In this document: in pieces, positions 382 to 62,375 of the stretch
Layout: every line of letters starts with the position of its first letter
Numbering within the stretch: position 1 is the first letter of the stretch
NCBI GenBank assembly: GCA_016748015.1
Contig: JAAOMT010000620.1
Location: 268,215-332,214, forward strand
Direction: 5' to 3'
Source: Geosiphon pyriformis uo1
Lineage: Eukaryota; Fungi; Glomeromycota
DNA length: 64,000 nt
The notes under the pieces: model-generated
The model's database searches: none
Seen by the model: the letters and a program-made list of their open reading frames with translations, nothing else
Told to the model about the DNA's origin: nothing
Program-made: the position numbers and the translations under genes

Positions 382-3173
382 CTATTGTCATTTCATGAGA
401 GTATTGGCAGCAGCTTATTGTGTTCTTCATCAGCCCATAAGACTTGATACACTTCCCAAGTAGGTTTTGGTTTTTTTTCTTCGAAGTCAATTAGTGGTGC
501 TGTGGTGTTGGTAGCTTTGAAGTGACCACACATTGCTAGTACTCACATGTGTTAACCATTCTGGCTGAGTACTAGTTCTTGAGTCATCTAATCAAGCATG
601 ACATTGATTTTGGATAGCCAGTCATTACCAACTAAAGCTTGATATTGGGTGGCTTCCATCACCAGAACTTTGATGGGTACTATGATGCCATTGACTTCAA
701 TTGAGAAGTTATTGATTTCACCAATTGGTTTTGGTGGTTCCATCCGTGGTGATAATCCTGACACTGGCAGTGCGATCAACTCAGCAACCTAATTGATCCA
801 TGAGTTGTCATGTAATGATGCTGCCTGCTGAACCACTGTCAAGGATTAATTTGATGAAGTGGCCATCAATCTTGGCATTAGTGTACATGGCTGTGATCAG
901 TTTCTCTTCAAGTACTGCTCCATTGAATAATAGTGTATCTGATGGTTCCTCAAGTTCGAATGAGAAGAGGCATCCAAAGATTCATTTTCGGTAATTGTAG
1001 CAGATGGAATATTATTGGTAGGTGGTTGTTGTTGTTGTTCAATTCCCTGATTGCTGGAAGTGGCATCTTCTGGAGTCATCAGAAGGCTTAAATAGTGTTG
1101 GAAATTTGGGTTTTGGGTGGGATCAGTGCCCAAATTCCACTGATGAAATTCTGATTGTTGATAGAAAGAGCTGGGGATTAGTTGATATACAACTATTGCT
1201 GATTTCCAGTTTTGGGTGATCCTTGATCTTGGGTTCCCTGATGTTATTTGAGCTGGGTTTGCTGGTGGTGTTTGAATAGTGGGTGTTTGATAGATTGCTG
1301 GTGGCTGTAGTTGATATATTACTTGTGGTTGCACCTGATAAATTGTTTGTGGCTGTGGTTAATAAACTGGAGTTTGATAAACTGGCAGTTGATAAATTGG
1401 TTGGTGCATCATAGGCAGGTAAGTGAGTTGGTATTGGTCTTGATTCAGGTGATGGTTCGGAATCTGGAACCGGTGATTAGGATTTCTATATTGATTTCCC
1501 AATTGTGAATTGCTATAAGTATAACAGTTGGCTCTGATGTGTCCTTGTTTACCACAGTTGTAACAGATGTGTGTTTCTGGCTGCCACGACTAATTGGATA
1601 ATGACAATAGATATGACTGATTTTGGAAACAATTCGTGTTTTCCTGATTGTTACACCATTGAGAGGTTGATAAATTGTGCGATTGTCAGCTAAGTATCCC
1701 TCTAATTTCTGATTAATTGAATTACTGAATTGCTTCAATTCGGAATCCAATTCAGATGATTCATTCATTGCTAGATTCACAGCTTGAGTGTGATTAGCTT
1801 CTAGTTCAGCTGCTTCAAAATCCCTGGTGTAGGTGACTGTGGTTGGAAGGTCCACTGGGTGCATTGGACATACTTGTTGTAGGATGCTACTGCACAATCC
1901 TCTAATAAATTGATTTAAAATCTATGGTGCTGTAAAATAGTCAGCTTAGATGGCTTGTATTTGGCATAGATTTCTATAGAAGTGTCCCAAGTAGGTAGTG
2001 ACTGCTTCAGTGTCCTCTTGTCTGATAGTGGTAAAGATGTTGGCTAATTTGTTGATACTATTATTGTTGCTAAAGTACCACAAGAATTCAGTTTTGAATC
2101 CATTAAAATTTTGGGGTTTAACAACAAAACTTTGATACCATGCATTAGCAGTATTCTGGAGAAAAAAAGGGATTACTTGCATTGCTCTAGCATCATCTCA
2201 ATTATTGGCTGTAATGGCTTTGGCCACATCATTTAACCAGACTTGGGCATTATTTTCTTCACTGTTGAATTTGTCAAGTTTCACAATGGGTGCATAAGCC
2301 ATTTGTTGTTGCTGTGATAGTAAAAGTTGTTGTTGTTGTTGGGGCAGTACTGGTGGTAGTTGTTGATTTTGTTGGTTCAGTGGTTGAATGGGCTGGCTAA
2401 TTAGTTCAATGGGTGGTTGATCAATGACAATAACTGGAGGTAAGTGTTGATTAATTACTTTGGGGTTTGGATTGTTCTGATTTGGTGGGGTTTGAAATTC
2501 GGAGTGTCGTTTTCTGAATTGTCTAAATTGGGCTGGGTTTGAAAGTTCGGGGTTTCAATTTCCAGGTTTTTTAGAATCAGGTTTTGGTAAGTAAATTCTT
2601 GATCCTCAGATTCTTTTTTCTCTTCTACTTCTTGTTCTTCTTCCGATTCAGTAATTTCCCAAGGACTTGCAATTCTGAAATTCGGTTGAGATGGTGGTGA
2701 TCAAAATTCTGATGGCATCAGTAATCGAGATTTAAATCCTTCAAAATACTCGCCATATAGTTCTAGTAAATCCTCTTTTCTTTGTTTAGTTTGAAATAAA
2801 AAATGTCCAAATGTTGATGTTGCGTTTGATGCAAACATGTCTGTTGATGATATATTAATGACACTTCCAAAGGTATAGTGGTAGAATGGGTTGTTTGGAG
2901 ACTCAACTCTAGTTTTCTTCTAAGTGGGTGGTTGTATCCTTTGAGGTGTTACTACTGGTGTTTGTAGTTTTTCTTTGTCTTTACTTGTGTAAGTAATTGG
3001 GTATCTTTGCTGTGTGTGGTGTTTAATTTTTTTGTTGATCTTAGTGATAATAAATGTAAAATTATGATTTGTGGGTAGGCTGGTGTTTTGAATTAATTTA
3101 TTGTAAAAAGTTTTTCTTACTGATTCAATATTCATGGATGTTCTCAACAGATAGGCAATCCTTTTGTTGATAT

Positions 3174-4046
3174 TATTACAGGTGATTATTTTTACTGTTG
3201 AATTAAATAACAAACCCATAACTTGGTGCTCAAAAGCTATTTCTGTTGATAATATTATGAAAGTGTTGTATCTGAAAGTTTTGATGGAGTTCTTTGTATA
3301 ATAGACAGAGATTCAATAGTGTCAATAGTAGATATATCTTTCCAAAAGTTTTCCCAATTTCTTTCTCAGTGTGGTGGCCAGATTTAGTCTGGCAGTCGTG
3401 CTCTTCTAGTAAGCTATCTGATAATATATAAAATCCTACCCTTATTTCTGGGTCTTTTACCAGGCTATTCTTGACATCAATAATTCAGTGCTTAATCTTT
3501 TTAATTAATTAGTATACAACAACAAAATCAAAGAAAGAAAGAAAATAAAAATAAAGAAAATAGAGAAAATAAACCAAGGCAATTTGTTAGTATCTGGTCA
3601 ATAGCTGTGATCAAGAGCTATTGTTTCAGCATGGTTAAGTATCAATTACTATCAACACTTTATGTTGATAGTGGAGAGTGGGTTGAGATATGGAATAATT
3701 ATTTATTTGATGATTGGGAACTGGAAGGTTGCTTAGATTAAATCTAAACTAAGAGGTTTCTCTTTTTAGCTTCTAATTCTACTGCTATATATACATAATT
3801 GAGATTCCTTAATTCCTTAATTCTTTGTGACAGGAATCCTGAGATTTCTGGAATCTTGTAATTCCTGATGAGAGGAATCCTGGAATTTTGGAATCCTGCA
3901 ATTCCTCGTCAGAGAATTCTGAAATTTCTGGAATCCTGTAATTCCTCTGAGAGGAATTCTGGAATTCCATATTTACTATGTCTATCTCTAATTGGCTAAT
4001 ATCTACTGACTAATAATACTATATTTCCTATATTCTATGAGTAACA
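3174..4046 (-). repeat. 3' LTR of element A (type 1 LTR)
   Basis: Direct repeat of 12439-13329; preceded on the minus strand by the PPT AAAAGGAGGGAATAA. Confidence 0.95.
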
Positions 4047-4061
4047 TTATTCCCTCCTTTT
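4047..4061 (-). promoter_or_regulatory. Polypurine tract of element A
   Basis: AAAAGGAGGGAATAA directly upstream of the 3' LTR. Equivalent tracts at 27131-27145, 38688-38702, 43189-43203 and about 53160-53174. Confidence 0.9.
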
Positions 4062-4720
4062 AATATTGAGCTCCATTAAAATCTAATTCTTTTAATTCCC
4101 CTTCTTGAATTATTTCTTGAACTTCTTTTTTGAGTATTACTTGTGTTATTTTATTTTGTAGTTTTTCAAATTGGGTGTTGGTCATTTTTCTCAATTGATT
4201 ACTCGTAACTGTATCCATTGTCATGTTGAGTAAGATTTCTGGTTGGTTTTGAAATCCCATATATAGCCAGTAAATGGCTTGAGCTTGTGTGGTTAGATTG
4301 TTTTTTCCCACAAATTGTTCTAGTTGTCCCAGTATTGTGGTGTCAAATAACTATTTTGTTTTGTCAGTGTACAAGTTCTGGATATTTATGTGTTGTCCCA
4401 AGTAAAAATAACAATAGTTTTTTGGAAATTGTTGTATCCACCAAGTCCAAGTTTCTCTGGTAAGTTCTTGGTGTAATTCGACTATTTGTTGTTCTTTCAT
4501 GGCCAATTTTATCTTGGTCATAATCTTGTTGACCACATTTTCAAGTCTTTTCTGTGCTTTGTTTTGTGGTATCTTTGTCGTATTTTTGTAACAAATGGTT
4601 TGTTGATTGATGGTAATTTCCATCTCCTGGTGTTGGATTAATTGAAAAATTTGTTAAGCTAGTGAATAGATATTGTCTATAATCTCCATTTTTCTGATCT
4701 CTTCTGTCATGTCAACCATG
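4060..4720 (-). pseudogene. Extra 3' ORF (ORF3, type 1) of element A, function unknown, interrupted by stops
   Basis: ORFs 4351-4623 and 4060-4311 are in one frame. Homologous segments in D (19586-19900 and 26804-27132) and G (43202-43850). Ends ...LDFxGAQY* at the PPT. Confidence 0.8.
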
Positions 4721-4744
4721 TTTTTTATATATTCTTTTGTCAAT

Positions 4745-6126
4745 CAATTGGACGTGTTGTTGTCAATGATAATGATTGATTCCAGATCTCGTGGAATCTC
4801 ATCTGGTTGGACTAGTATTCTCTGTACTCCTAATTGTAGAATATTACTGGTAGATAATGATGCTATATGATGATATGGTTTTAGTCAATCTCCATGTGTT
4901 GCTTTGGTTAAGATTTTGTTATTTAATCTTAATTTGTAAGCTCTATTTTCTAGAATTTCTTCTATGTAAAATGGTCCATCCCATTTGGGGTCAAATTTTC
5001 TACTCCATTGTTTTTCTGCTTTGGTATGATGTAGTAGTACTTTGTCTCCAATCCTGAATTCAACTGGTTTATTTAGTAGTTGGTTATCATGTCTTTTTTT
5101 TTGTTTCTCTTGTAACTTTTGTATGTTATTAGCTGCTCTTTATTGTTTGTTTTCTAATGTTTTCATTAAGTCATATGTTCTTTTCAACAATGTATTTTTG
5201 AAATTCTCTTCTGTTATTGGTTCGGTTGGGTATGTGCTAACTTCTATTTCCACTGATAGTGTTGTTGTTCTACCATATACTAATTCAAATAGTGTTGCTT
5301 GTATAGTATCTTGTTTCATTGTTCGATAAGCAAATAGTACTGATGGTATCAACAAATCCCAATTGTTTTGGTTTTCTTGGCTGAGTTTAGCTATTGCTTT
5401 ACACAATGTTCTGTTGAATCTTTTGACTAATCCATTGGTTTGTGGATAGTATGGTGATGATAATGGTCTCTTAATTCCAAATCTTTGGCTCAATTCTGTT
5501 AATGTTTTGTTCACAAAATGAGTTCCTTGATCTGATAATAATTCTTTTGGACATCCATGTCGACAGATCAAATCCTAATAAACAAATTCGGCAATGGATT
5601 CTGTATCCGCTCTTTGAATTGCTTTCACCTCTGGCCATTTAGTGAGATAGTCCATGGCTACTGTTATGTACCCATTTCCTCCACTGGTGATTGTTAATGG
5701 TCCAACTAGATCAATTCCAACATGGTCGAATGGTTGTTCTACTTTGATTGGTCTTAATGGTTCACTGGGTTTTGTACCTCCTCTTCACTGACAAGCATCA
5801 CAATTTTGAATATATTGGATAATATTTGGATACATTGATGGCCAATAGTATCTTTTTCTGGTTCTTTCCATGGTTGCTTCTTTGTAAAAATGTCCTGCTG
5901 TTAGATTTGAGTACATGTTAAATAATATTGTCTCTTTTTTTGGTTCTGTAATTACTCTGGTTGGTTGATCTGGATTTTTTCTATTTTTCTGATAAAGTAT
6001 ATTTTGGTGAGTGATAAAATATTTTGATTGTTGTTTAATATTCTTTTGTTCTGTTTGAGATAAATTCTCCTTGAACTGTTGAGTGTTTATATAATATTGA
6101 AGTTGTTGATATTTTTGTATGTTCAT
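4745..6126 (-). pseudogene. Integrase of element A (HHCC zinc finger, DDE core, SH3-like C-terminus)
   Basis: AGHF...YYWPSM...CDACQ (5785-6126); LLSDQGTHF and YYPQTNGLVKRFNRTL (5140-5571). Confidence 0.92.
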
Positions 6127-7450: not shown

Positions 7451-8009
7451 TTGCATCTCCAGTCTTGATCTGATGCTGAATGATGTCAATTTAGCCAAAC
7501 TCATTTTCACTGGCAAAGATGTCATTGAACTGGTGGAGCAACATCTTAAGTTGTATATGTTGGAATGGATCTAAGTTTTCTATGTTCATTTGTTCCAATT
7601 GTTCTGGTTGGAGCAAATAACATTCACTTTGTCTGTATATTGTTTGTGATGTGATATCAACATATTCACAAAGTTGTGGAAAGTCTGAAATGGGGTTTGG
7701 TGGTTGATTCTCCATTTCAGTGTTTAAGTATCCAATAATGGTTCCAGCTGGTATTTCTATGACATTTTCTGTATTGTTATAGATGGGAATTTTGATGTGG
7801 CTGTAATCTTTGGCTGGTATGTGAAGATTGATAAGTCCAACTTCTTTTGATTTACAAAGACTGGCTTCTGCTTAAAAATTTGTGCTTGGTCTTTTTCCTT
7901 CCTTTCTATTGCTAGCATATACTGGTTATATGGTGAAATAGAAATAGCTTGACCAGTTGAGATAATTTCTCTTTGGTCAACAATTTCTTCCTCTGCCATA
8001 TTAACTGGT

Positions 8010-8420
8010 ACATCTATTCTATCCATTGATCCGAATCCCTGTATTCCTCTTGTTGTTATTCCTAATTCCCCCCTCTTTCCCACTAATACTAACTGAGCTA
8101 TTCTAACCAGAGGCAGGAATATTGCCTGTGCTATCTTTTTATTGGGCTCTATTATATAGGCTTTTTCTGAGTTATTTTGTAGCATAGCAATGATATTTCC
8201 TATATATCCTGCATCAATTATTCCTCCTCTTATATTAATCTCTCTTTTTGCTAAACTACTCCTAGATGCTAATTGAACCATTGTTGTTGCTGGAATTTCT
8301 AGTGCTACTTTCAGATCAATGCAAGTGCATGATTGTGGTTCCAATTTGATGGCCTCTTTTCCTGGATACCTTAGATCAAACTCTGCATCAGTATCATGTG
8401 CATATTCTGGCATAATACCT
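8010..8420 (-). pseudogene. Trimeric dUTPase domain of element A
   Basis: Motifs DA(G)FDL, ASRSSLA, GGIIDAGYIGNI, KIAQAIF and RGIQGFGS (dUTPase motifs 1-5) in ORF 7757-8413. Confidence 0.92.
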
Positions 8421-8679
8421 TCCCCATTGTCACTATATCATTTCAACTCTTGTTCCTTGGAGAGATCTGGTAGTACAATGTATTGTTTATAGTTTAAATC
8501 GGAGTTTGAATCATTTTTGTTGTCATTGCCATTTTAAACAGAGTTGAAACCGGTGTTTTCATCGTTATCGTCAGAGTCTGGATTGCGATTGATCAGTGAT
8601 TCTGATTCTGATGCACAGCTGCTGATTGGTTCTTCTTCTTTAGAAATTGTGTAGATCATGTGTGGTGGTGGATTGTAAA

Positions 8680-12438: not shown

Positions 12439-13329
12439 TGTTACAGGTGATTATTTCTGCTGTTGAATTAAATAACAAACCTGTAACTTGGTACTCAAAA
12501 GCTATTTCCATCGATGATATTATAAAAGTGTTGTATCTGAAGATTTTGATAGAGTCCTTTGTATAATAGACAGAGATTCAATAGTGTTGATAGTAGATGT
12601 ATCTTTTCAAGAGTTTTCCCAATTTCTTTCTAAGCATGATGGCTGGATTTAGTCTGGCAGTCATGCTCTTCTGGTAAGCTATTCGATAATATATAAAATC
12701 CTACCCTTATTTCTGGGTCTTTTACCAGACTATTCTTAACGTCAATAACTCAGCACTTAATCTTTTTAATCAATTAGTATACAACAACAAAATCAAAGAA
12801 AGAAAGAAAGAAAATAAAATAAAGAAAATAAAAATAAAGAAAATAGAAAAAATAAGCCAAGGCAATTTGTTAGTATCTTGTCAATAGCCATAATCAAGAG
12901 CTATTGTTCCAGTATGGTTAAGTATTAATTACTATCAACATGAAGTGTTGATAGTGGAGAATGAGTTGAGATATGGAATAATTATTTATTTGATGATTGA
13001 GAACTGGAAGGTTGCTTAGATTAAATCTAAACTGAGAGGTCTCTCTTTTCAGCTTCTAATCCTACTGCTATATATATATAATTGAGATTCCTTAATTCCT
13101 TAATTCTTTGTGACAGGAATCCTGAGATTTCTGGAATCTTGCAATTCCTGATGAGAGGAATCCTGGAATTTTGGAATCCTGCAATTCCTCGTCAGAGAAT
13201 TCTGAAATTTCTGGAATCCTGTAATTCCTCTGAGAGGAATTCTGGAATTCCATATTTACTATGTCTATCTCTAATTGGCTAATATCTACTGACTAATAAT
13301 ACTATATTTCCTATATTCTATGAGTAACA
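12439..13329 (-). repeat. 5' LTR of element A
   Basis: TGTTAC/GTAACA termini, adjacent PBS, TATA-like TATATATAG and GGAATTCC/GGAATCCT tandem repeats in U3. Confidence 0.95.
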
Positions 13330-16870: not shown

Positions 16871-17509
16871 GTAAATGTACCAGTTAATTTTACAGAGGAA
16901 GACAGTAACCAGGTAGAACTTATTTATACTGACACAGTCATTTCTATCCTTCCATATCAACAATATATTTTTAAGATGAATTAAAAGATTTAAGATCAAG
17001 TTCTGTTATTTAAAGCCAGTCCTAAAATCTGTTCCCTAGCCAATGTTGCTAACTTATACCTACTGACCAAAGCTTATAAACACTTCAAAATTTCCATCCA
17101 CAAACCCACAAAAGATGTCATTGAAATCTTTGAAAAGACTCTTATTGGTTCCATCTCACCAGACATTTAACATCCCAAAAAACCCCAACCTATTCCAGAC
17201 TTTACACAGCTATTCTTATTTTGTGATATTACCTCACAAATATGGAACTTGTTAAAAGAAAGTTATCTGTTTATGCCAGAAAAAATTAACAAACTACACT
17301 TGGAAAACCTAAATATTCTCTAGCAAATTCAACTTAAGGTTCTCTTAAATCAATACACCAATGTCTTTGCCAGTGAAAATAAGTTTGAACACACTAACAT
17401 TGTGAAGCATCAAATTAATATGAAAAATGCACAATATTACTTAAAGAAAGAAAGCCTATCAAAGAAAAAAGGGAAAATGTAACTTAAAAAATGTGACAAA
17501 ATGTAAAAG

Positions 17510-17685
17510 AACACAGAATAATGTGCAATAATGTTGGATAATACATTATAATATAGAATAATGTGTTATAATACAGAATAACACATTATAACATGGGATA
17601 ACATGTTATAATACAAAATAACACAGAATAATGTGTAATAATATCAGATAACTTGTTATAATATAAGATAATTAGTTATAATGTA
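17510..17685 (+). repeat. ATAAC/ATAAT-based degenerate tandem repeats in the U3 of type 2/3 LTRs
   Basis: Short units such as ACAGAATAAT and GTGTTATAAT; the same array occurs at about 38780-38960 and 53230-53380. Confidence 0.8.
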
Positions 17686-17969
17686 AAAAAACAAAGTAAT
17701 AGTTAGCAAGAACAAACAATCCAAAACAATTCTGTAAAATTAAAAAATATGTATATATAGCAATAGTATTAGAAGCAGAAAAAGAGAAAATCTTCAGACA
17801 GAAATTTATTAGTTACCATTCTTAGTTAAAAACATATTATTTCAAAATATCAATAAATATACTTATTTAGAATTTCAAATTTAATTGCTTACTATTAGCT
17901 CTAAATATTGATAGTAATTGATATTTAAACCACATAGGAACAATAGTTCTTGATTATGACTATTAATAG

Positions 17970-20900
17970 TGTTATTCATAAAAATATAGGAATTATATTA
18001 GCATATAAATTAACCAATTAGAAGTAGCCATAGTAAATGTGGAATTCCAAGATTTTTCTCAAGAAGAATTGCAGGATTCTAGAAATTTCAGGATTCTTGT
18101 ACAAGGAATTGCAGAATTATAAAATTCCAGGCTTTCTCTTAAAAGAAATTGCAGAATTCTAGGAATTTCAAGATTCCTGGTATAAAAAATAGAAAAATTA
18201 AGGAATCTCTGTATATATAACAGTAGTGTTAAAAACAAAAAAGGCAGAATTCTTCAGTTAAAGATCTCTCAGTTTAGATTTAATCTAAGTGATCTTCCAA
18301 CTCACAAATATCAATAAATAATTATTCTCTATTTTAAATCTACTCTCTACTATCAACATGAAATGTTGATAGTAATTGATACTTAACCATACTAGAACAA
18401 TAGCTCTTAATCATGACTATTGATAGGATACTAACTTTTGTTGCCTTGGCTTATTTCTTTAATTTTCTTTTATTTCTTTTTATTTTGTTTTTGTTATTTC
18501 TTTATTGTGTACTAATTGATTAAGAGATTAAAGTACTGAATTATTGATGTCAAAGATTGCTTAGTAAAAAACCCCTGCAAATAAGTAGAGCATGTAAAAA
18601 AATTACAGATTACTTATCAGAGGAATATTAACCATCAAGCTGAAGAAAAAAATTGACAGAATTGTGATTCTGGAAAGCTACAAATAAACAACTATTGAAT
18701 CTCTGTCCATTATACAAAGAACTCAACCAAAACCTTCAGATAACAATATTTTCAGATTACTATCATCATAAATAGCTTCTAAGCACCAAGTTACAGATTT
18801 GTTATTTGATTCGAGATTTCAAATAATTATTTGTAATATTTAGTGCTTCTTGTAAGGTATAATTCTACAGAAAACCAGCACCAACAACAATTATCCAAAA
18901 GTGGTAGAATCAGAAATCATAGAAGCAAACCATTTAGGATTTGCCAAATCTTTGTTTCAACAGTACAGCCAATAATTAGAATTAAACAATGATTATTTTC
19001 CAGCAGAATCAGCCTTTAATTTTTATGTCAACAATAAAATTACAGACTGCTTAGGAGGAACAATTAACATTGAATCTGCAAGAGAAAATTTTTATACAGA
19101 ATTGTTTCAACATACTAGCTTACCAAGAAACTACAGTTTTGCACCAATCATCAAGAAAATCAATCAAACTATTGAAAGATACACCCAACAACAATTCCCC
19201 ATTACCTATGCAGACAAAGGCAAGAGAAGATTGCAAACACCAGTGGTAACACCAAAACAAATATAATCACCCACTTGAAAGAAAACCAGAGTTGAATTAC
19301 CAATAAATCCATCATATTATTATATACCAGGAAGTGCCATTAATATATCTTCAGTAGACGTGTCCACATCAAATACAATATCAACTTTCAGATAATTCCC
19401 ATTTCAAAGTAAACAAAGAAGAGCAGAGTTATTAGAACCATATAGTGAATACTTCAAAGGATTTAAATCATGATCACCAATGCCATCAGGATTTTGATTA
19501 CTGCCACCTCAACCAGATTTTGGAACCACAAGTTTGTGGAAAGTAATGGAATCAGAAAAAAAAAGTAAAAATCAGGAATTTACTTAAATGTTGTCCTAAA
19601 TAAAAGTAACAAAAGTTTCTTGAAAATTGTTGTATCTACCAATTCCAAGTTTCTATAGTTAACTCTTGGTATTGGGTAACTTTTGGTTGTGTTTTTATTG
19701 CCAATTTCACTTTTGTGATTATTTTGTCAACAGTGTTTTCTGTTTTTCTCCATTTTTTATCTCATAATCTTTTTCTGATGTTTGTGTATCTGATAGTTTG
19801 TTAGTTGATTGTAATTTTCATTTTTTGTTGTTGGATTAGTTGGAAAAATTGTTGTGCTAGTAAGTGAATATTGTCAGTAATCTCTATTTTCTGCTGTTTT
19901 TTGTCACATATATTGTGTTTTTTATATACTTCTTGGTTGTTCAATTTTACATGTTTGGTTCAATGATTATAATTGGTTTTAGATCTTATGGAATCTTATC
20001 TGGTTTGATTAGTATTCTCTGTACTTCTAATTGTGAAATATTACTGGTAAATGATGATGCTATATGGTGATATTGTTTCAGTTGATCACCATGTGCTGCT
20101 TTGGTTAAGATTTTGTTGTTCAATCTTAATTTATAAACTCTATTTCCAAGAATTTTTTTTATGTGAAATGGTCTATCTCATTTGGTGTCAAATTTTTCAC
20201 TCCATTGTTTTTCTACTTTGGTATGATGTAGAAGTACTTTGTTTCCAATTTTGAATTCAACTAGTTTCTCTAATAGTTGGTTGTCATGTCTTTTTTTTTG
20301 TTTTTCTTGTGACTTTTGTATGTTATTAGCTGCTCTTTATCTTTTGTTTTCTAGTGTTTCCATTAAGTCATATGTTCTTCTCAACAATGTTTTTTGGAAA
20401 TTCTCTTTTGTTATTGGTTTTGTTGGATATGTTTGTACTTTTATCTTTACTGATAGTGTCGCTGTTTTATCATATACCAATTTAAATGATGTTGCTTGTG
20501 TAGTGTCTTGCTTTATTGTCTAATAAGCAAATAATACCAATAGTATGAACAAATCTCATTCATCTTGATTTTTTTGGCTGATTTTGACAATTGCTTCACA
20601 CAATGTTCTATTGAATCTTTTAACTAATTCATTAGTTTATGAATGATATAATAATAACAATGGTCTTTTAATTCCAAATCTTTGACTTAATTCTTCTAAT
20701 GTTCTATTTACAAAATGAGTTCCTTAATCTGATAATAGTTCTTTTAGACATTTGTGTCAACAGATCAAATCTTGATGAACAAATTCAGCAATGGATTCTG
20801 CATTTGTTCTTTGAATAACTTTTATTTCTGGCTATTTTGTGAGATAGTCCATGACTACTGTAATATATCTGTTGTCTTTGCTGGTAATTGTTAATAGTCT

Positions 20901-23900
20901 GACTAAGTCAATTCCAATTTGGTCAAATGGTTGTCCTACTTTGATTGGTCTTAACGGTTTGCTGGGTTTTGTTTCATTTTTTCTTTGACAAGCATTACAA
21001 TTTTGAACATATTGGATAATGTCTGAATACATTGATGGCCAATAGTATCTTTTTCTGGTTCTTTCTATGGTTGCTTCTTTATAAAAATGTCCTGCTATTG
21101 GATCTGAGTACATGTTAAATAATATTGTCTCTTTTTCTGATTCTGTGATTACTTTGGTTGATTGATCTGGATTTCTTTTGTTCTTCTGGTAAAGTATATT
21201 TTGGTAATTGATAAAATATTTTGATTGTTGTTTTATGTTGTTTTGTTTCTTTTGAGATAATTTCTCCTTAAACAATTGAGTATTTATATAATGTTGGAGT
21301 TGTTAATATTTTTGTATATTCATGTTTTGTTATATTTTTGGGTTTAAAATGTTTTTAAATTTGTCTCATTCATAACAAACTGTCAACATTTCCATTGTCT
21401 TTTCCCTTTTTATAATGTAATGTAAATATATATGATAATAATATTATTTTCCATCTTGTATAATAATTATTTCCAAATTTTTGCTTCTGGATTGAAGTCA
21501 ATTCTTTGTGATCAGTATACACATTAAACTTTTAACTCAAGTATTCTTTCCATTTGGTTACAGTCCAATAGATAGCTAAGTGTTCCAGTACTGAAGTTTT
21601 ATAGTTCTTTTCAGCTGAACTTAAGCTTCTATTGGTGTAAGCTACTAAATGTTCTCTTTCATTTGGTCTTTTTTGTAATAGTACTGCTCCTAATGCTTGG
21701 TCTGATGTATCAGTGGTGATAATGAATAGTTTGCTGTGATCTGAATACATCAACACTAGAGCTTGGATAAGCTTTCTTCTTAATGTGTCGAAAACTTTTT
21801 GCTGAGCTTCTGTCCATTTATACTTCACATTTTTGGTTTGTAGATGATGGAATGACTGGGCCAGTTTAGAAAAGTTATTGATAAAGTGGCAATAATAGCC
21901 TGCGAATCCCAAAAATGCTCTTAGTTCTGTCAAGTTAGTTGGTACTGGAAAGTTCTTTACTATTGCAATCTTGTCTGAATCTGTTTTGATATCATCTTTG
22001 CTTACAATATGTCCCAAAAACTTGAGTTCTGACTTTTCAAAGAAACATTTGTTTGCATTCAACTTCAATCCTGCTATTCTCAATCTTTTGAACACTTGTT
22101 AAAAATAATGTAGATGGTTATCAAATGTTTTGGAGAACACATTTGTGTTGTCTAAGTAAACAACTATGAATGTTCACAGTAGTCCAGTATAAACAATTTT
22201 CATGAGCCATTGGAATGTTGCTGATGCATTCATCAAGCCAAATGACATAACTTTGAATTCGAAATTCTTTTTCCGTGTTGTAAAAACTGTTTTTTCTTTA
22301 TCTTCTGGCTTCATAACTACCTGCCAGTAACTGTTGTCTAAATCTAAAGTCAAGAACCATTTTTTTCTTCTAAAAGCATTAAACAGTTTTTAGATCTTTG
22401 GAATCAGATAGCTATTACCTTTAGTTACTCCATTCAATTTCTGATAATCTATACAAAAACAGATCTTTCCATTTTTCTTCTGGACTAGTACCACTGGTAA
22501 TGACCATGGGCTTATTGATAGTTGAATTAGTCTGTTGTCAAGCATCCAGTTGATTTCTTGATGAATGATCTCATGGCTGGCTGGTGGTATTTTGTATGCT
22601 CTTTGTTTGATTGACATTGTCTCTCCAGTTTTGATCTAATGTTAGATTATGTTAGTTCTATCAAATTTGTTTTCACTGGCAAAGATGTCATTGAAATTGT
22701 TGAGTAATATCTTGAGTTGTATCCATTAAAATGGGTCTAAGTTTTCCAAGTTTATCTGTTCCAATTGTTCTGGTTAGAGCAGATAACATTTTTCTCGTCT
22801 GTATATTGTTTAAGAGGTTATATCTACATATTCACACAATTGTGGAAAATTTGGAATGGCATTTGGTAGTTGGTCTTCAATTTTGGTGGTTAGATATCCA
22901 ATAGTAGTTTCTTCTGGTACTTCTATAATATCTTCTATGTTATTGTAAATAAAAATTTTGATGTGGCTATGGTTCTTGGCTGGTATGTGTAAATTGACTA
23001 ATCCAATTTTTCCTGATTCACAAAGTATTGCTTCTGCCTCAAAAATCTGAACTTGATCTTTTACTTTTCTCTCTATAACTACCATGTACTAATTATATGG
23101 TAAAATGGAAATTGGTTGACAAATGGAGATAATTTCTCTCTTGTCAATAACTTTTTCCTCTGTCATATTGATTAGTACATCTATTCTATCTGTTGATCTA
23201 AATCCCTGTATCTCTTTAGCTATAATCCCTAATTCTTTTTTGTTTCTCACTAATACTAATTAAGCTATTTTTACCAGAGACAGGAATATTGCCTGTACTA
23301 TTTTTTTATTTGGCTCTATGATATAGGCCTTTTCTGAATCATTTTGTAGCATTGCAATAATGTTTTCTACATATCTTGTGTTGATTATTTCTTTTCTAAT
23401 GTTGATTCTCTTTTTTGCTAAGCTACTCCTAAATGCTAGTTAAATCATTGTAGTTGCTGGAATTTCTAGTGCTATCTTGAGATCAATGCATGTGTGCAAA
23501 TGTGGTTCCAATTTGATGGCATTTTTTTCTGAATATCTTAGATCAAACCCTGCATCTGTATTATGTACACATTTTGGCATAATGCCTTTATTGTTGTCAC
23601 TATACTATCTGAGTTCCTGTTTCTTGAAGAGATCAAGAAGTGCAATATATGTTTTGGGATTTGAATCGGAGTTTGAATTGCTATTATTTTTTTTGCCATT
23701 TTAAGCAAAACTAAAACTGTTGTTTTTATTATCATCATTGTTAGAGTTTGAATCAGAATTGAAAATTGATTCTGATTCCAATGTGCAGTTGTTAATTGGT
23801 CCTTTTTTTTCTGGAATTGTGTAGATCATATGTGGTGGTGGATTGTAAATGAAATCACACTTATTACAATATTGAAAGTTACATGGAATTAGGCAGTTTT

Positions 23901-26900
23901 GTGAGCACTAATTTTTGGTAGTGTTTGTAGAATTGTTCTGGATCCAGGAGGTTTATGACTGGTTCCAGGTTCCAATCAAGTTCTATGAGTTCAGATGAGT
24001 TATTTTTAATTGTTCTTATTTCTTCTGGTGATGCTCCTTTGATTTTGACAAGTGCTATTTGCCAAATTTTATTATTATTGTGTGAACAGCTGTCCAGACA
24101 TTTGACTGCTCATCTCCAGGCAGCGTCTATGGGTGTTCTTTTTCTTACCCAGTCACTTATGAGAATTGTATATTGACATAATTCATTATATGTTCCTTTT
24201 TTCCCAGGAATGTTATTTCACATTTTTTTGTCAAGAAGAGTTTTTTCACAAGCCAAATATGGCTCATTATCCTATTTTTCAACTTGTTTTGGTTTTCTAA
24301 AGTGGTCAATGAGGCATGGGCGGTAATAAAACTTAGTTGCCATTTGGTATTCCTCGTCATTGCCACAGCATGTGCCCATTAATGACAATTTCTTATTGTA
24401 ATCAATGCATATGAGCTTTGGTTGGCGATAAGTGGATTGTTGTAGTGTAGTATAGATGTAGGAGTTATAAGTAGTGATGTTGATAGGTGTTGTTTTTTCT
24501 TCTTTCTCTTTTCCTTTTCTCTTGTCAGTTTTTTTTCACTCCCATGTTAATGATTTGTTCAGATCATTGTTAGTTCCCCAGACTTGGTTGGTATTTTAGG
24601 TAAGTTCTTTTCTTTGTTTTTCTTTTCTGTTGTTATCCCCAAAGAGTACCAGTAATAACTCATTGTGGTCTTTATCAGTTTAAGAAACTTGATAGGCTTT
24701 CCAGATAGGTTTCTTCTCTTTTTTCTTGAATTCAATAAGTGGTGCTGTCATGTTGGTGATCTTGAAATGGCCATACGTGGCTGATACACATGTGTGTTGA
24801 CTGTTCTGGCTGAATTAGAGCTCCTGCATGTTCCAATCAAGTGTCATATTGGTTTTTGACAGCCAATTATTATTAATGAGTGCTTATATTGAGTCACTTT
24901 TATGATTAATACCTTAATTGACATGATAATGCCATTGACTTCTATAAAGAAGTCATCAATCTCACTGATTAGAGTTTTGGTTGCTTCATTAGCAATGATA
25001 ATTCACGTGCTGGCAGCTCAATCAACTCGGTGACCTAATTGGTCCATGAGTTGTTTTGTAATGATGCTGCCAATAGATCTACTGTTTAGGATCAGTTTGA
25101 TGGAGTGGCCATCAACTTTAGCATCAGTGTACATAGTGGTGATAGGTTTTTCTTCAAGAACAGCTCCACTAAATAATAGCATGGTTGATAGTTCCTCGAG
25201 TTCAAACAAAAAAATGACATCCAGTAATTCATTTTTAGTGATGATAGCTGGTGGAATGTTGCTGGTAAGTGTTGATTGTTGGTTAGTTTCTGGTTTATTA
25301 GGTTGAGTGTTTTCTGGGGTAACCAGAAGACTTAAATAGTGTTGGAAAATTGGGTTTTGAGCATGCCCAGTTCCCAAATTCTAAGGACATGATTCTAATT
25401 GTTATGTGGAAGAGCTGAAGATTGGTTGGTGAACAACTATCGCTGATCTCCAATTTTGCGTAACTCTTAATCTAGAGTTTCCTGATATTATCTGAGCTGA
25501 GTTTGATGATAATATTTGAACTATGGGTGTCTAATAAATTATTTGTGGCTGCAATGGTTGATATATTACTTGTGGCTGTAATTAATAAACTGGAAGTTGA
25601 TATATGGGTGGTTAATATATTGTCTGCTGTATTATTAACAGATAAGTGGACTGATATTGTTCTTAATTTAAGTAATGATTCAGGATTTGAACTCTGTGAT
25701 TAGGATTTTGGTATTAATTTCCTGATTGTGAATTACTATAAAAATGGCAGTTAACTCTAATGTATCTTGTTTACTACAGTTGTGGCAAACTCACATCTTT
25801 GGCTGTCACAGTTAATTGAATAATGATGATAGACACAACTGATTTTGGAAACAATTCGCATTTTCTGAATTATTGTGTCATTGTAGTGGTTAATAAATTG
25901 TGTAATTGTCAGCTAAATATCTCTTTAATTTCTGATTAATTGAATTACTGAGTTGCTTCAATTTAGAATCCAAGTCAGATGATCCATTTATTACTAGATT
26001 TACAGCTTAGACATGATTAGTTTCGAGTTTAGCTGCTTCAAAATCTCTGACATTCATAACTGTAGCTTGAAAATCTGCTGGATGTATTGGGTGTATGCAC
26101 TGAAGGATGCTACTGCACAGTCCTCTAATGAATTGATTCAGGATTTGTGGTACTGTAAAATAATCAGTCTGTATGACCTAAATTTAATGCATATATCTGT
26201 AGAAGCATCCTAAGTAAGTGGTGACTGCTTCATTTTCTTCTTGTTTGATGGTGGTAAAGATATTTACTAGGCGATTGATACTATTATTATTGCTGAAGTA
26301 TTGTAGGAATACAAGCTTGAATGCATTGAAATCCTGTGGTTTATTGGCTAAGCTTTAATACCATGAGTTAGCAGTATTCTGGAAAAAATAAGAGATGGCT
26401 TGCATGGCTCTGGCATTGTTTCATCCATTAGTTGCGATAGCTTTTTCCATGTTGTTCAGCCAGACTTGGGTGTTGTTTTCTTCACTGGTAAATTTCTCAA
26501 GTTTAACTATTGGAGCATAAGCCATTGGTATGATTGGTTGTTGGTGTAGTGGTTGAAGTTGTTGTTGTGGCTGTAGAAGCAGCTGTGGTGGTTGTTGAGG
26601 TGATTGAAGTGGTTGTTGGAGAGGTTGCTGAAGTGGCTACTGTTAAATTGGTTCAATAATTGGTTCAGTTAGTGGCTGATTGATGACAATTACTGGAGGT
26701 AAGTTTTGCTGATTAATTGTTTCGGAGTTTGGATTGTTTTGAGTTTGCTGGATTTGAATGCTTGGAATTTCAACTTCCAGATTTTCTAAGATCAGGTTTT
26801 GGTGAATATTTAGAACTTGTATACAGATAAAACAAAACGATTATTTAACACAACAATACTGCAACAACTGGAACAATTTGTGGAAAAGAACAATTTGACA

Positions 26901-27983
26901 ACACAAGCAAGAGCCATTTATTGGCTACATACCAGATTTCAAAATCGACCAGAAATCTTACTCAATCTAGAAATAAATTTTATTACTATTAACCAAATGG
27001 AAAAAATAATCAATGCTCAATTTGAAAAATTACAAAACAAGATAATACAAGTAATTTTTGAAAAAAAAAGTTCAAAAAATACTCAACAACAGAGAATTAG
27101 AATTAGGAGATCTTGACGAAGCTCAATATTAAAAGGAAGAGATAATATTACTCATAAAAATATAAGAAGTATATTAGCATATAAATTAGCCAATTAGAAG
27201 TAGCCATAGTAAATATGGAATTCCAGGATTCCAGGAATTTCAAAATTTTCATACAAGAAATCACAGGATTCCAGAATTCCAGGATTCCTCTCAAAAGGAA
27301 TTACAGGATTCCAGAAATTCTAAGATTCCTGGTGTAAAGAATAAAAGAATTAAGAAATCTCAATTCTGTATATATAACAGTAGTATTAAAAGCAGAAAAG
27401 ACAAAATCCTTCAGTTAAAGACCTCTCAGTTTAGATTTAATCTAAGCAACCTTCTAACTCACAAATATCAATAAATAATTATTCTCTATCTCAAATCTAC
27501 TCTTCACTATCAATACTTCATGTTGATAGTAATTGATACTTAACCACACTAAAACAATAGCTCTTGATTATGGCTATTGACAGAATACTAACTTTTGTTG
27601 CCTTGGCTTATTTCTTTAATTTGCTTTTATTTCTTTTTATTTTGTTTTTATTATTTCTTTATTGTGTACTAATTAAAGCACTGAATTATTGATGTCAAAA
27701 ATTGTTTGGTAAAAGACCCCTATAAGTGGATAGAGCATGTAAAAGAATTACGGATTACTTACTAAAGGAGTACTGGCCATCAAGCTGAAAAAAAAAATTG
27801 ACAGAATTGTAATTCTGGGAAGCTACAAATAAACAACTATTAAATCTCTGTTCATTATACAAAAGACTCAACCAAAATCTTCAGATAACAATACCTTCAG
27901 ATCACCATTATCACAAATAGCTTCTGAGCACCAAGTTATGAGTTTGTTATTTGATTCGAGATCTCAAATAATCACTTATAACA
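17970..27983 (+). mobile_element. Full-length decayed Ty3/Gypsy element D with an internal inversion (19586-26803)
   Basis: LTRs 17970-18838 and 27146-27983, both on +; PBS 18841-18858; PPT 27131-27145; TSD ATAG/ATAA. Most of gag-pol lies on the minus strand. Confidence 0.92.
19586..26803 (-). pseudogene. Inverted gag(3')-PR-Cys-rich-dUTPase-RT-RH-INT-ORF3(5') segment of element D
   Basis: Minus-strand ORFs 25018-25377 (protease), 22390-22617 and 21532-22095 (RT/RH), 20832-21275 (integrase zinc finger). Confidence 0.9.
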
Positions 27984-29350
27984 ATAAGATACTAACTTGC
28001 ATTGTCTTGGCTTAAATTTCTTTATTTCATTTTATTTTGTTGTATTTTGTTGGTGGTTTACTAAACTTTTAAGGATTAAGCACTAAGTTATTGACATCAA
28101 AAATTGCCTAGTAAAAGACCCCTGTAAATGAGTAAAATACATAAGAATTATGAATTGCTTACTAAAAGATTGCCAGCCATCAAGCTGAGAAATAAATTGA
28201 CAGAATTGCAATTCTGGGAAGCTACAGATAAAATAACATAGGAATCTTTGTCTATTATACAAAAGACTTAATTAAAACCTTCAAAACATGAAAATCTTCA
28301 GATTACTATTATTTCATATCAATTAAGCACCAAGTTACAGATTTGTTATTTACTTCAACTATCCAAAATAATTACCTATAACATTTAGTGCTTCCTGTGA
28401 AGTATAATCCTACAGAAAACCAGTACCAACAACAGTTATCCAAAAGTGGCAGAATCAGAAATAATAGGGACAAACCACTTAGAATTCACCAAATTCTTAT
28501 TTCAACAGTATAACCAACAACTATTATTCAATAGAATCAGTTTTCAACTTTTACATTAATAAAAAAATTACAGATTTTCTAGAAAAACCAGTTGACATTA
28601 AATCAGCAAGAGAAAATTTCTATACAGAATTAATTTAACACACCAGTTTACTATGAAATTACAGTTTTACACCAATCATCAAAAAAATCAATCAAAAAAT
28701 TGAAAAATATACTCAACAATAATTTTCTATTACCTATGCAGATAAAAGTAAAAAAAAGTTACAAACACCAGCAGCAATTCCAAAAGAAATACAATTACCA
28801 ATATGGAAGAAACAAAGAATTGAATCTCTATTATATTTATCATATCATTACATACATGGAAGTACCATCAATATTGTATCAGTAAACATGTCCATATTAA
28901 ATGTAACATTAACATTTGAACAACTCTCATTTCAAAGTAAACAAAAGATAGCAGAATTATTAAGAACTTACAGTGATTATTTTGAAGGATTTAAATCATA
29001 ATTACCAACACCATCAGAATTTCAATTATCATTGCTTCAACCAAATTTCGGGACTGCAAGTTTCTGGGAGATAACAGAATCGGAAGAAAAAGAAAACAAC
29101 AATCAAAAATTTTATTACCACAACCTGATAATAGAAAACCTGGAAGTTGAAACCCCAAATATTCAAACTCAAGAAAATCAGCACAATTCAAATCCTGATC
29201 TTATTAATTAACAAAATTTACCTCCAGTGATCATGATAAACCAACCACCAATTGACCTAATTGCTGAGTTAATACTACAACAGTTACTAATACCACTTCA
29301 ATAACTACTAGTACAATAGCAACAACCAATTGTACTAATAGCATATGTAT

Positions 29351-33200: not shown

Positions 33201-36200
33201 CTAATAACTTGGGAGAGGGAAGAAAGCAATAAGAGAAAAGAAAAAAAAAAGAAGGAAGAAACAACAACCACCAATACCACCACTTATAACTCTTATACCT
33301 ATACTATACCACAATGATCTATCTATTGCCAATCAAAACTCACATGCATTGATTGTGGCAAGAAATTGTTATCAATGGGCACATGTTGTGGCAACAATGA
33401 GAAATACACAATGGCAACAAAATTATATTGCTGCCTATGTATCTTTGAATGCTTTGGACGACCCAAATAACAAGGAAAATAGGACAATGAACTATGTTTG
33501 GCTTGTGGCAAAATGCTGTTAGATGAAGAAATGTGGAATGACATTTTTGGGCAAAGAGGAACATGTAATGAATCATGTCAATACATGATTCTAATAAGTG
33601 ACTGGATTAGAAAAGGGACACCAATAGAAGCCATATGGAGAAGAGCAATAAAATGCCTGGACAGTTGTCCACATAATGACAATGAAATGTGGCAAATGAC
33701 ACTAACCAAAATTGAAGGTGCATTGCCAAAGGAAATTAAAATAATGAAAAATAACCCTCCAAAACTCATAGAACTCAACTGAAACCCAGAACCAGTCATA
33801 AATCTCTTAGATTCAGAACAATTCTATGAACACTACCAAGAATTAGCACTCACTCAAGAAAAACAAAAACAATGCTTGGAAGAAATCAATATCCGACTAT
33901 GTAACCACTGTTTGATCCCATGTAACTTTTAATATTGTAATGAGTGTGACCTCATTTACAATCCACCACCATGCATGATCTACATAATTCCAGAGGAAGA
34001 CAAACCAATTAATAGCTGTGCATTGGAATCGGAATCAACCTTCAATCCTGATTTAAACTTCAACAATAACGACAACAAAACAATGGCTTCAGCTTTATTC
34101 AAAAGGGCAACAAAAATTACAATGATTCAAACTTTAATTCAAACCCCAAACAATATATTGTGCTTTCTAACCTCTCTAAGAAGCAGAAACTAAAATGGTT
34201 TAGTGACAATAATGAGAGCATTATGCCAAAATGTGCACATAATACTGATGCAGGGTTTGATCTGAGATATCCCAGAAAAAATGCCATTAAATTAGAACCA
34301 CACTCATGCACCTGCATTGATCTTAAAATAGCACTGGAAATTCCAGCAACAACAATAGTTTAATTAGCATCTAAGAATAGTTTAGTGAAAAAGGGAATCA
34401 ACATCAGAGAAGAAATAATTGACACAGAATATGTAAAAAATATCATTGCAATGCTACAAAATGACACAGAAAAGGCCTACATTATAGAGCCAAATGAAAA
34501 AATAGCACAGGTGATATTCTTGTCTTTGGTTAAAATAGCTCAATTAGTATTAGTAGAAAACAGAGAAGAATTAGGGATTATGGCTAAAAGAATACAGGGT
34601 TTTGGATCCATGAGTAGAATAAATGTATCAGTTAATATGGCAAAGGAAGAAATTGTTAACAAAAGAGAAATTATCTCCACCTGTCAACCAATTTCCATTC
34701 TACCATATAACCAGTACATGGTAGTTATAGAGAGAAAAGTAAAAGATCAAGTACAAATTTTTGAAGCAGAAGCAACAATTTGTAAATCAGAAAAAATAGA
34801 ATTAGTCAATCTATACATACTAGCCAAGAACTACAGACACATCAAAATTCCCATTTACAACAACACAGGAAACATCATCAAAATACCAGAAGGAACTATT
34901 ATTGGATACTTAATTATTGAAATTGAAGACCAACTGTCAAACACCATTCCAGATTTTTTACAACTATGTGGATATTTAGATATTACATCACAAACAATAT
35001 ATGAATGAGAAGAATGTTATCTGCTCCAACCAGAACAATTGAAACAGATGAACTTGAGAAATTTAGACCCACTACAATGTATGCAACTTAAGATGCTACT
35101 TAACAACTTCAATAACATCTTTGCCAGTAAAAACAAATTTGGCAGAACTGACATCATTCAATATCAGATCAAGACTGAAGATGCAATGCCAATTAAACAA
35201 AGAGCACACAAAGTACTACCAGCCAGTCATAAGATCATTTGTCAAGAAATCAATCAGATGCTTAACAATGGGCTAATTCAGTTATTAATAAGCCCATGGT
35301 TATTACCAATGGTATTAGTCCATAAGAAGAATGGAAAAATCCACTTTTGTGTGGATTATTGGAAACTAAATGAAGTAACAAAAGGAGACAGCTACCCAAC
35401 TCCAAAAATCTAAGAACTTTTCGATGCTTTTAGAGAAAAAAAATGGTTTTTGACATTAAACTTAGACAGTGATTACTGGCAAGTAGCTATGAAACCGAAA
35501 AATAAAGAAAAAACAGTATTCACAACATGAAAAAAAAATTTTGAATTCAAAGTTATGCTATTTGGCTTGATAAATGCTCCAGCCACTTTCCAGTGGCTCA
35601 TAAAAATTGTTTATACTGGGCTACTATAAAAATTAGTAGTCATATATTTAGATAACACCAATGTGTTCTCAAAAACATTTGATGATTATCTGTATTATTT
35701 CCAACAAGTATTTAAAAGACTCAAATGAGCAGAATTGAAATTAAATGCAAACAAATGCTTCTTTGGCAAAATGAAACTCAAGTTTTTGGGACATATGGTA
35801 AGCAAAAACAGTATTAAAATGAATCCAAATAAGATTGAGATTGTTAAGAACTTTCCAGTACCAAATAATCTCACAGAATTAAAAGCATTCTTGGGATTTG
35901 CTGAATACTACTGCCACTTTATTAAAGACTTTTCCAAAATAGCTCAACCACTACACCAACTCCAAACAAAAAACACCAAATATGAATAAACAGAAACTCA
36001 GCAAGAAGCTTTTAATACATTAAGAAAAAAGCTTATTCAAGCCCCAGTACTGATCTATTCAGATCATAGCAAGCCATTCATAATCACAACTGATGCATCT
36101 GGTTAAGCATTGGAAGCAGTATTATCTTAGAAAAAACTGAACAGATGAAAACATTCAGTAGCTTATGCCAGTAAAAGCTTAAGTCCAGCTGAAAAAAACT

Positions 36201-37917: not shown

Positions 37918-38688
37918 ATGGACCTTTCAGACCAAATTTTAAAATTATCTAAACAATTATTTGATGAAATTCAAAAATCTACATCTCAAATAAAGATTAT
38001 AATTGATAAAAAAAAGATAAGATATAGAGATAAAAGGAAGAGAAAGATAGACAAAAGTTTAATTATAACTAATTATTTCTATTCTTACACTTCATTCAAG
38101 AAGAAAATTTTACAAAAAGAAATTAAATATACTTTTTGAATAGAATGTAGAGAAAAAGGAGAAGAGAAAAAAGAAAAAGTGAGAAAATTAGATAGAAGAC
38201 AAAAACAATTATATACAGCATACTTGGCCTTTAAGCTAGAAAAAATTAAAAAATTTTTAACTTGTAGAACCAAACTTTTTGAAACAAGGAAGTGAACACC
38301 AGACAATGTCCAAGAGTAAAAAAAAAAACTCTTTCCAACATATTGGTTTTACAAAATTAGGGAATAACTAGACTTAAAAAACCCATATAGAGACTACAAC
38401 CAGAAAACTTTTAATAAAGAAGCAATGCAACAAATGGAAAAATTCATAGAAAGAAGCAACTTAACACTATACTACAAAGCAACATGTTGATTATATGTCA
38501 CTTTTCAACATTGTCCAAATGTACTATTAGATAGATCTTTGAAAAAAATAACAATCAACAACATAGGATGAATAACCAATTAATAGTTTGAAAATCTATA
38601 AAAAACTATAATCGATATAACCATTAAACATTACATAAATGAAGTTCTACTAATAGACATAACTGATTTTGCAAAAGCTCAATATTAA
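37918..38688 (+). pseudogene. Extra 3' ORF (ORF3, type 2) of element E
   Basis: MDLSDQILKLSKQLFDEIQ...QQMEKFI..NLTLYYKA..WLY..FQHCPNVLL...DFAKAQY*; homologous to 52445-53161 in C. Confidence 0.75.
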
Positions 38689-38702
38689 AAAAAAGGAGAT
38701 AA

Positions 38703-42283: not shown

Positions 42284-42340
42284 ACAACATAGAGCAAATT
42301 AAATTAAGGAATTCAAATATATATAGCATCCAAAAAGCAG

Positions 42341-57316: not shown

Positions 57317-57340
57317 AATTTACGATAAAGAATAGCAATT

Positions 57341-59062
<1,722 letters not shown>

Positions 59063-62315: not shown

Positions 62316-62375
<60 letters not shown>

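Follow-up and report, generated by a model that had tools for sequence, protein, structure and literature searches.

A selected accessory gene between integrase and the 3' LTR in Ty3/Gypsy retrotransposons of Geosiphon pyriformis

Ty3/Gypsy retrotransposons of Geosiphon pyriformis were found to carry, downstream of integrase, an open reading frame (ORF3) that is a genuine accessory gene maintained by selection and occurring as a family. Its position is of a known kind, and its protein fits none of the families in the libraries consulted. The elements described here lie in a stretch of 64,000 nucleotides (contig JAAOMT010000620.1, positions 268,215 to 332,214), referred to below as the window. 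LTR retrotransposons often have extra ORFs downstream of pol, whose jobs are largely unknown according to a review (PMC7264820).

The first 54 kb of the window (1-54 kb) consist of nested, decayed Ty3/Gypsy elements, beyond which lies a beta-tubulin-like gene. The five elements that matter here are called A, C, D, E and G. Their LTRs of ~850-890 bp start with TGTTAC and end with TGTAACA, the LTR pairs are 83-95% identical, and the insertions are flanked by 4-bp target duplications (CTGC for G and, with transition decay allowed, ACGT/ATAT for A and ACAA/GTAA for E). A PBS-like site of the TGGTGC type follows five of the six LTRs examined and is deleted in G, while a polypurine tract (PPT) is found at all five 3' ends. 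Pfam matches above cut-off place protease, dUTPase, RT, RNase H and integrase in this order in pol; by its LTRs, target duplication, PBS/PPT and pol order, the host element is a Ty3/Gypsy LTR retrotransposon. The dUTPase frames lie between protease and RT at 7757-8437 (-), 46591-47559 (-) and 34364-35008 (+), the Pfam match being that of 46591-47559. Element A, on the minus strand, runs from a 5' LTR at 12439-13329, followed by the PBS-like TGGTGCTTCCTGTGAG and bounded by the ACGT/ATAT duplication, to a 3' LTR at 3174-4046 (~870 bp), whose ends read TG...TA by decay. Its integrase occupies 4744-6111, with an SH3-like C-terminal part and a TGA stop at 4746-4744, and its PPT 4047-4061. When the integrase C-terminus and ORF3 of A, a single decayed copy, were scanned with Pfam, SH3_Tf2-1 was the sole match (E 7.8e-06, below cut-off) and a chromodomain was not found. 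Rfam gave no match at 3100-5300.

An initial sequence-only reading had described an ORF after integrase that ends at the PPT, in two types. Both points hold: when all six frames of the window were searched with a profile, exactly five copies turned up, all decayed, in sense orientation between integrase and the PPT, with type 1 in A, D and G and type 2 in C and E. The copy of A (4060-4719, minus strand) has 219 codons from ATG to TAA, and its TAA overlaps the PPT directly before the LTR start TGTTAC at 4046. That of G lies at 43202-43850 (minus strand), and that of D is in two pieces, a 5' piece at 19581-19915 (minus strand; 5' end approximate) within an inverted segment and a 3' piece at 26802-27132 (plus strand). 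The type-2 copies are those of E (37918-38688, plus strand; 256 codons) and C (52436-53161, plus strand), the upstream part of the latter lying to the left of the inserted G with its CTGC duplication. A and C ORF3 are 24% identical (E 1e-17), and the two types share the C-terminal core noticed earlier and, beyond that claim, an N-terminal motif as well.

No copy in the window is open. Stops are present in all five (at codons 22 and 123 in A, three in G, nine each in E and C); in addition, G is frameshifted near 43280, D is split by the inversion, and C is interrupted by G, which inserted just upstream. In-frame stops in the ORF3 frame versus the two other frames number 2/19/8 in A, 3/16/8 in G, 9/27/24 in E, 9/21/23 in C and 1/7/6 in the 3' part of D. 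Transitions make up nearly all of the 303 differences between LTR pairs (16 are transversions), and the ORF3 stops are therefore attributed to decay after insertion. In run X1, the codon-22 stop of A reads CAA in 99% of depth, and no variant of its terminal stop reaches 10% among 1743 contig pieces. The decay in the LTR pairs of A, D, E and G is almost purely C>T/G>A, and the ratio of observed to expected CpG is 0.23 in A, 0.21 in the relative L002 (below) and 0.94 in the tubulin region; together, the substitution pattern and the CpG depletion of the elements fit methylation-driven mutation. A motif, (C/T)(A/G)GAGCTCAAT, is found just upstream of the PPT in A, G, D, E and C, as well as at L002:3087-3097, and may be a cis signal besides coding sequence.

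Relatives were sought widely. All 98 matches to type-1 ORF3 (of 161 candidates) and all 40 to type-2 ORF3 (of 5212) are hypothetical proteins of Geosiphon pyriformis G9A89. At least 150 G9A89 'hypothetical proteins' are retrotransposon ORF3 copies rather than host genes. Searching 1.84 billion representatives with a profile yielded 111 matches. The relatives were grouped by eye into seven divergent types, with pairwise identities mostly of 21-46%; a tree was built from 14 rows. Type 3 likewise comes from G. pyriformis, and type 6 from ENA metagenome contigs (two of 59 matches are non-Geosiphon); the metagenomic relatives are open frames. A pattern scan of metagenomes (61 of 64 parts) confirmed at least two of 595 pattern matches, L001 and L002. 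Many G9A89 models are spliced around stops, and the ORF3 alignments of 23 rows (A2) and 24 rows (A6) were therefore built from apparently colinear ones only. No relatives were found in viral contigs (0/58 and 0/10 stretches), in prokaryotic genomes (0/173) or in phages (best E 0.4).

That ORF3 is a selected gene, as the sequence-only reading had supposed, is borne out by an excess of silent differences between A and D. Differences were compared with a permutation null preserving the substitution spectrum, for A vs D, A vs G and E vs C. For A vs D, ORF3 has more silent differences than the null (z 4.5 and 3.2); the same is true of pol (integrase z 5.5, RT-RH z 6.4), while the LTR controls gave z -1.1 to -0.1 and wrong frames negative values. 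For ORF3, neither A vs G (z 1.4) nor E vs C (z 1.3) reaches significance, and integrase in G vs A does not either (z 1.5); given the z of E vs C, the direct evidence of selection comes from type 1 and none from type 2. Raw pN/pS is 0.32-0.33 for type-1 ORF3, 0.50 for type-2 ORF3 and 0.25-0.51 for pol. Between subfamilies, ORF3 is under purifying selection, like pol, a conclusion drawn from type 1 (A vs D). Types 1 and 2 are 27% identical in ORF3, which is saturated for dN/dS, and 50% in integrase; for type 1 and L002 the values are 31% and 54%. Judged from these identities, ORF3 diverges faster than integrase.

Each ORF3 type with a readable U3, three in all, lies beside a different short-period array. 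The type-1 array of A (3825-3970, minus strand) is built of 40-bp units containing GGAATTCC-type palindromes and is situated between a CCAAT-like motif at 3991 and a TATA-like motif at 3786 of the 3' LTR (minus strand). The type-2 arrays of E (38770-38985, plus strand) and C (53225-53395, plus strand) belong to a second kind, which in E has a 10/20-bp period and ATAAC..GTTAT palindromes. The U3 of L002 contains a third array, of CTTAATT-type motifs at spacings of 10, 17 and 20, without an 8-bp palindrome. Motif counts separate the first two kinds: eight full type-1 U3s have 5-9 type-1 motifs and no type-2 motif, a ninth, an 86-nt remnant, has two and none, and three type-2 U3s have 11-15 type-2 motifs and 0-2 type-1 motifs. 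By these counts U3 type tracks ORF3 type in five of five copies, as had been noticed. It should be noted that the five window copies are two lineages and one recombinant rather than five independent pairings, and that the independent evidence for ORF3/U3 pairing is three pairs and one recombinant only. Linkage alone, which the sequence-only reading had also offered as an explanation, stands: because ORF3 adjoins U3, both the pairing and the chimera are expected from linkage just as well. Among the reads across the type-1 ORF3/U3 junction, 1% of 1743 pieces continue unlike it, the pieces being too short to decide, and none of the six loose ends listed (of 54), also short pieces, resembles a type-2 U3. 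As to an internal promoter with the response element of U3, the spacer and U3 of L002 share a 12-mer, as do 76 of 1000 shuffles (non-significant).

The recombinant is element E (17435-39643, plus strand), which has a type-2 U3 in both LTRs and a type-2 ORF3 together with D-like gag and pol. Inserted in the RT of C, E has a 5' LTR at 17435-28383 that is split by the inserted D (type-2 U3 at 17435-17960, the rest at 27984-28383); it differs from the 3' LTR (~38700-39643) by <1% transversions, and the two are flanked by the duplication given above. The LTR at 17435 had also been considered as a 3' LTR with an ORF3 remnant; this was rejected, as it is the 5' LTR of E within the RT of C. The first gag stretch and pol of E are D-like (1-6% transversions). 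Integrase shifts from D-like to C-like in a recombination zone at 37500-37650 (plus strand), and from ~37550 onward integrase and ORF3 are C-like (4-10% transversions); R-U5 is again nearest to D (6-14% transversions). A type-1 LTR and a second gag start are found inside E at 29351, and this insertion may have contributed part of the internal region. Irrespective of it, D-like sequence makes up the first gag stretch and U5, in comparisons that covered gag and R-U5 of elements other than C. In the simplest reading of these sequences, for which there is this one case, a block comprising the integrase end, ORF3 and U3 moved onto a type-1 backbone and was then transposed. The chimera fits a cognate ORF3/U3 module, and equally adjacency.

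The ORF3 protein matched no family in the libraries searched. Searches of Pfam, PHROGs, NCBIfam and PDB sequences gave nothing at cut-off, and Foldseek with ORF3 models gave nothing at E 0.001 in PDB and BFVD, the N-terminal 75 residues being barely covered; no significant match to an already described retroelement domain came from any of these sources. The model of type-1 ORF3 was poor (pLDDT 57). That of protein P0178, made with the 24-sequence alignment, reached a pLDDT of 82 (core above 90) and a pTM of 0.65, and comprises an N-terminal helix and beta-hairpin, a linker, and a helical core whose last element is a long helix. All fold scores were below the tool's noise level (Z under 8). Against 48,161 chains, the first model ranked SopB first (Z 4.5, rmsd 4.2, 88 aligned), followed by Spo0J (Z 3.6, rmsd 4.4, 93) and KorB (Z 3.6, rmsd 4.7, 89), all of which are ParB-type DNA-binding domains. 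For the P0178 model the best-ranked match was a designed protein, with Spo0J at rank 2 (Z 4.0, rmsd 5.3, 93), sigmaF at rank 9 (Z 3.7, rmsd 2.5, 56/57), and KorB and ParB at ranks 25 and 32, behind or amid unrelated helical proteins. DUF1016_N (PF17761), which may hold a helix-turn-helix (HTH), touches the putative HTH stretch of ORF3 in two of eight proteins (Pfam E 0.016 and 0.037; 14.6-15.8 bits, cut-off 32.8). Using hhalign, DUF1016 (eight sequences, namely seven of 25 listed plasmid hits and YhcG) aligned with the 6-sequence ORF3 alignment at a probability of 27.8% (E 6e-4, 63 columns), falling to 4.3% with the 24-sequence ORF3 alignment and to 0.1% for E. coli YhcG alone. The likeness to the ParB/SopB/KorB HTH and DUF1016_N runs over the Y.YF.IG ... 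G..N ... RLY..F stretch and is weak, with no score reaching significance. An N-terminal helix-hairpin part is particular to ORF3, for which no match to a ParB CTPase or nuclease domain was found. On these models, a ParB/KorB-type HTH is a lead, not an assignment.

Residues common to at least six of the seven types are mostly hydrophobic, to which are added P104, E141, G145, K146, N148, R158 and N181. The shared positions correspond to a hydrophobic core, a turn (G145, K146, N148) and the basic R158, with type-specific residues between them; E141 alone is acidic among the shared residues, which gives no sign of a metal-binding acid triad. The pI is 9.3-9.7 in four proteins and 5.2-6.3 in five, intact metagenomic ones included. 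An Atlas search returned nothing usable for P0004 and weak matches for P0178, including a 98-member eukaryotic cluster, mostly of Mucoromycota; the top match was a closterovirus coat protein, with a score that the tool rates as weak. Weak matches to RGS, importin-5, a GA-module and FtsQ were taken as chance.

We tentatively favor, as a real possibility rather than a probable one, that ORF3 is an activator or anti-silencer of the Tas or VANC kind that would bind the repeats of its own U3. The evidence for such a transactivator or anti-silencing factor is circumstantial and consists of the weak HTH hints, the ORF3/U3 pair of L002 and the chimera E. Fold scores below noise, the mixed charge of the proteins, the palindrome-free array of L002 and the proximity of ORF3 to U3 speak against it. 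ORF3 would be translated from a subgenomic or spliced RNA, and the predicted soluble, helical protein would bind its own LTR at the short U3 repeats. The putative HTH (helices 129-144 and 149-163 of the model, around the conserved G-K-x-N turn) would read DNA, and its target would be set by the type-specific residues with which the second helix begins. ORF3 might then recruit host transcription or demethylation machinery, with the outcome that its own family is activated or de-silenced, and the rapid divergence of ORF3 together with its U3 array could reflect an arms race with host cytosine methylation. A bolder form, which we regard as doubtful, is that an HTH-type ORF3 and its own U3 array make up a swappable, co-evolving, family-specific switch for activation or against methylation, that this switch is mobile as a block onto the gag-pol of another family, that it drove the LTR expansion of Geosiphon, and that there are at least seven orthogonal pairs.

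A post-transcriptional role is unlikely in our view, if well worth weighing. ORF3 would then act in RNA export or packaging, in suppression of RNA silencing or in particle trafficking in multinucleate hyphae, and the U3 pairing would hitch-hike. Retroviral accessory genes include RNA-export factors, as the available text of PMC7264820 describes, and AM fungi produce small RNAs at TE loci according to part of a preprint (bioRxiv 10.1101/2021.03.30.436303). This role would also suit the absence of a significant DNA-binding fold match, the acidity of several ORF3 types, and the fact that linkage accounts for the pairing. Against it, the recurring weak matches are to DNA-binding HTH domains. Moreover, the type-2 ORF3 of E functioned alongside type-1 Gag and Pol or was at least compatible with them, a point against a Gag partner specific to the lineage.

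It is quite improbable that ORF3 binds LTR DNA or chromatin without activating, as a repressor, a copy-number control or a tether of the integration complex. The HTH hints would apply equally to such a protein, and ParB-type domains such as KorB are known as repressors or tethers. The C-terminal part of the integrase of E travelled with ORF3, and integrase is without a chromodomain match, and both points speak for this reading. However, the arrays sit by the CCAAT- and TATA-like motifs of U3, upstream of them and away from the LTR tips, and the precedents with family-specific arrays are activators in the available text of PMC5735166 and bioRxiv 10.64898/2026.08.24.746577.

We consider it very improbable that read-through of the TGA, or a frameshift, makes ORF3 a C-terminal extension of integrase. 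The sequence-only reading had ORF3 in frame with integrase behind one TGA, and this part stands for A and G; in A the TGA is 8 codons before the ORF3 ATG, and, as to whether it could be a decayed CGA, among the 40 rows listed of 203 from run X1 there is no variant at 4746. The -1 frame of type 2, which overlaps the integrase end and is open for ~40 codons upstream of the ATG (C, E and gene model P0137), likewise speaks for an extension. As a general property the in-frame link fails, however, since the frame varies between types and within type 1: in C and E ORF3 is in the -1 frame to integrase, and run X1 contains 1-nt deletions just upstream of the ATG at 4721 (12%), 4723 (11%) and 4724 (13% of depth). 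The types also begin with the shared N-terminal motif near a Met. L002 encodes RT-RNase H and an integrase that is 54% identical to that of A, with one internal stop, followed by an AT-rich spacer of 317 nt and an open ORF3 of 230 codons, which continues beyond the purine tract and into an LTR that begins with TGTTAC. L001 contains an integrase end, an AT-rich spacer of ~700 nt and a type-6 ORF3 cut by the contig end. Because the ORF3 of L002 has its own ATG 317 nt past the integrase stop and in a different frame, family-wide read-through is rejected; the differing frames, the two spacers and the X1 deletions likewise count against read-through of the TGA, or decay into it, as the route to ORF3. 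ORF3 is a separate gene, with its own start codon in the intact relative L002. In L002:1-2139, the RNase H stop is at 772-774, integrase continues onward in the same frame, and the internal integrase stop is a TGA. The L001 spacer contains a 137-codon open frame at 398-811 (+), which may be another accessory ORF.

That ORF3 is a fusion protein like Env, or a remnant without selection, as its env position and the broken state of every window copy might suggest, is scarcely tenable, given the purifying selection, the frames open at 21-46% identity, an all-helical, soluble predicted core, only 1-3 cysteines, and, as the sequence-only reading had seen, no hydrophobic or transmembrane stretch (highest 19-residue Kyte-Doolittle mean 0.27-1.33 in nine of nine proteins).

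By position, orientation and conservation across family copies, ORF3 resembles the additional sense ORFs that lie between pol and the 3' LTR (aORF-3S) in LTR retrotransposons (PMC7264820) and the ORF3s of bdelloids (PMC5408684), as far as the available texts describe them. In the same part of PMC7264820, sense aORFs are Env-like with transmembrane stretches or are enzymes (GDSL esterase, DEDDy exonuclease), whereas the present ORF3 is predicted to be soluble and has no Pfam match at cut-off; the sole fungal case there, Boty, is antisense. Like foamy-virus Tas (Bel1), ORF3 is an accessory ORF at or into the 3' LTR (PMC3185757, in part): the ORF of types 1 and 2 stops at the PPT and that of L002 enters the LTR, a Tas-like placement. 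Tas binds U3 motifs (PMC3185757, available text), and by analogy the action proposed for ORF3 on its U3 would be alike. ORF3 differs from Tas in having no sequence or fold match to it and in its host, a fungal Ty3/Gypsy element without env. The VANC proteins of VANDAL (PMC5735166) and Spm TnpA (bioRxiv 10.64898/2026.08.24.746577) are, in the available texts, transposon-encoded accessory proteins that, like ORF3, outpace the core enzyme in divergence and are associated with family-specific short motifs in tandem repeats, those of ORF3 being candidate targets. The targets of VANC are tandem repeats that change between related families, according to part of PMC5735166. In contrast to ORF3, for which they are only inferred, binding and demethylation are demonstrated for VANC and TnpA, which belong to plant DNA transposons, and the VANC domains DUF1985 and DUF287 had no Pfam match in 24 of 24 ORF3 members.

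Sequence-specific self-activation is established for foamy viruses (PMC3185757) and plant DNA transposons (PMC5735166), according to the available texts; our literature search found no such factor for a fungal LTR retrotransposon. The search likewise found no description of ORF3 in the literature on Geosiphon or Glomeromycota elements, although Repbase and published repeat libraries could hold one. If true, a cognate ORF3/U3 module would be the retrotransposon counterpart of Tas and VANC. LTR content makes up 41.2% of the G. pyriformis genome in the available text of PMC11952901, a share (41%) that ORF3 activity could help explain. Because natural ORF3s exist in several types, and the U3 array can be read for three of these, a matrix of cognate versus non-cognate binding is feasible.

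Several minor observations were made. The integrase of A is nearer to that of L002 (775-2139; 54%) than to that of C (40931-42330; 50%), and the ORF3 of A groups with those of C and E, away from L002; these sequences suggest a possible discordance between the integrase and ORF3 trees, confounded by decay in C. D, G and the LTR at 29351, all type 1, are nested within the type-2 elements E and C, and A is inserted in the gag of another type-1 element; from the nesting order, type-1 insertions look younger than type-2 ones. Approximately 7.2 kb of D (19581-26790) is inverted relative to its LTRs, with breakpoints in ORF3 and in gag. Outside the element nest, beta-tubulin-like exons were recognized from the sequence at 57329-58618 (+), and 61714-62970 (-) holds a low-complexity frame of 418 codons that includes a poly-Thr run.
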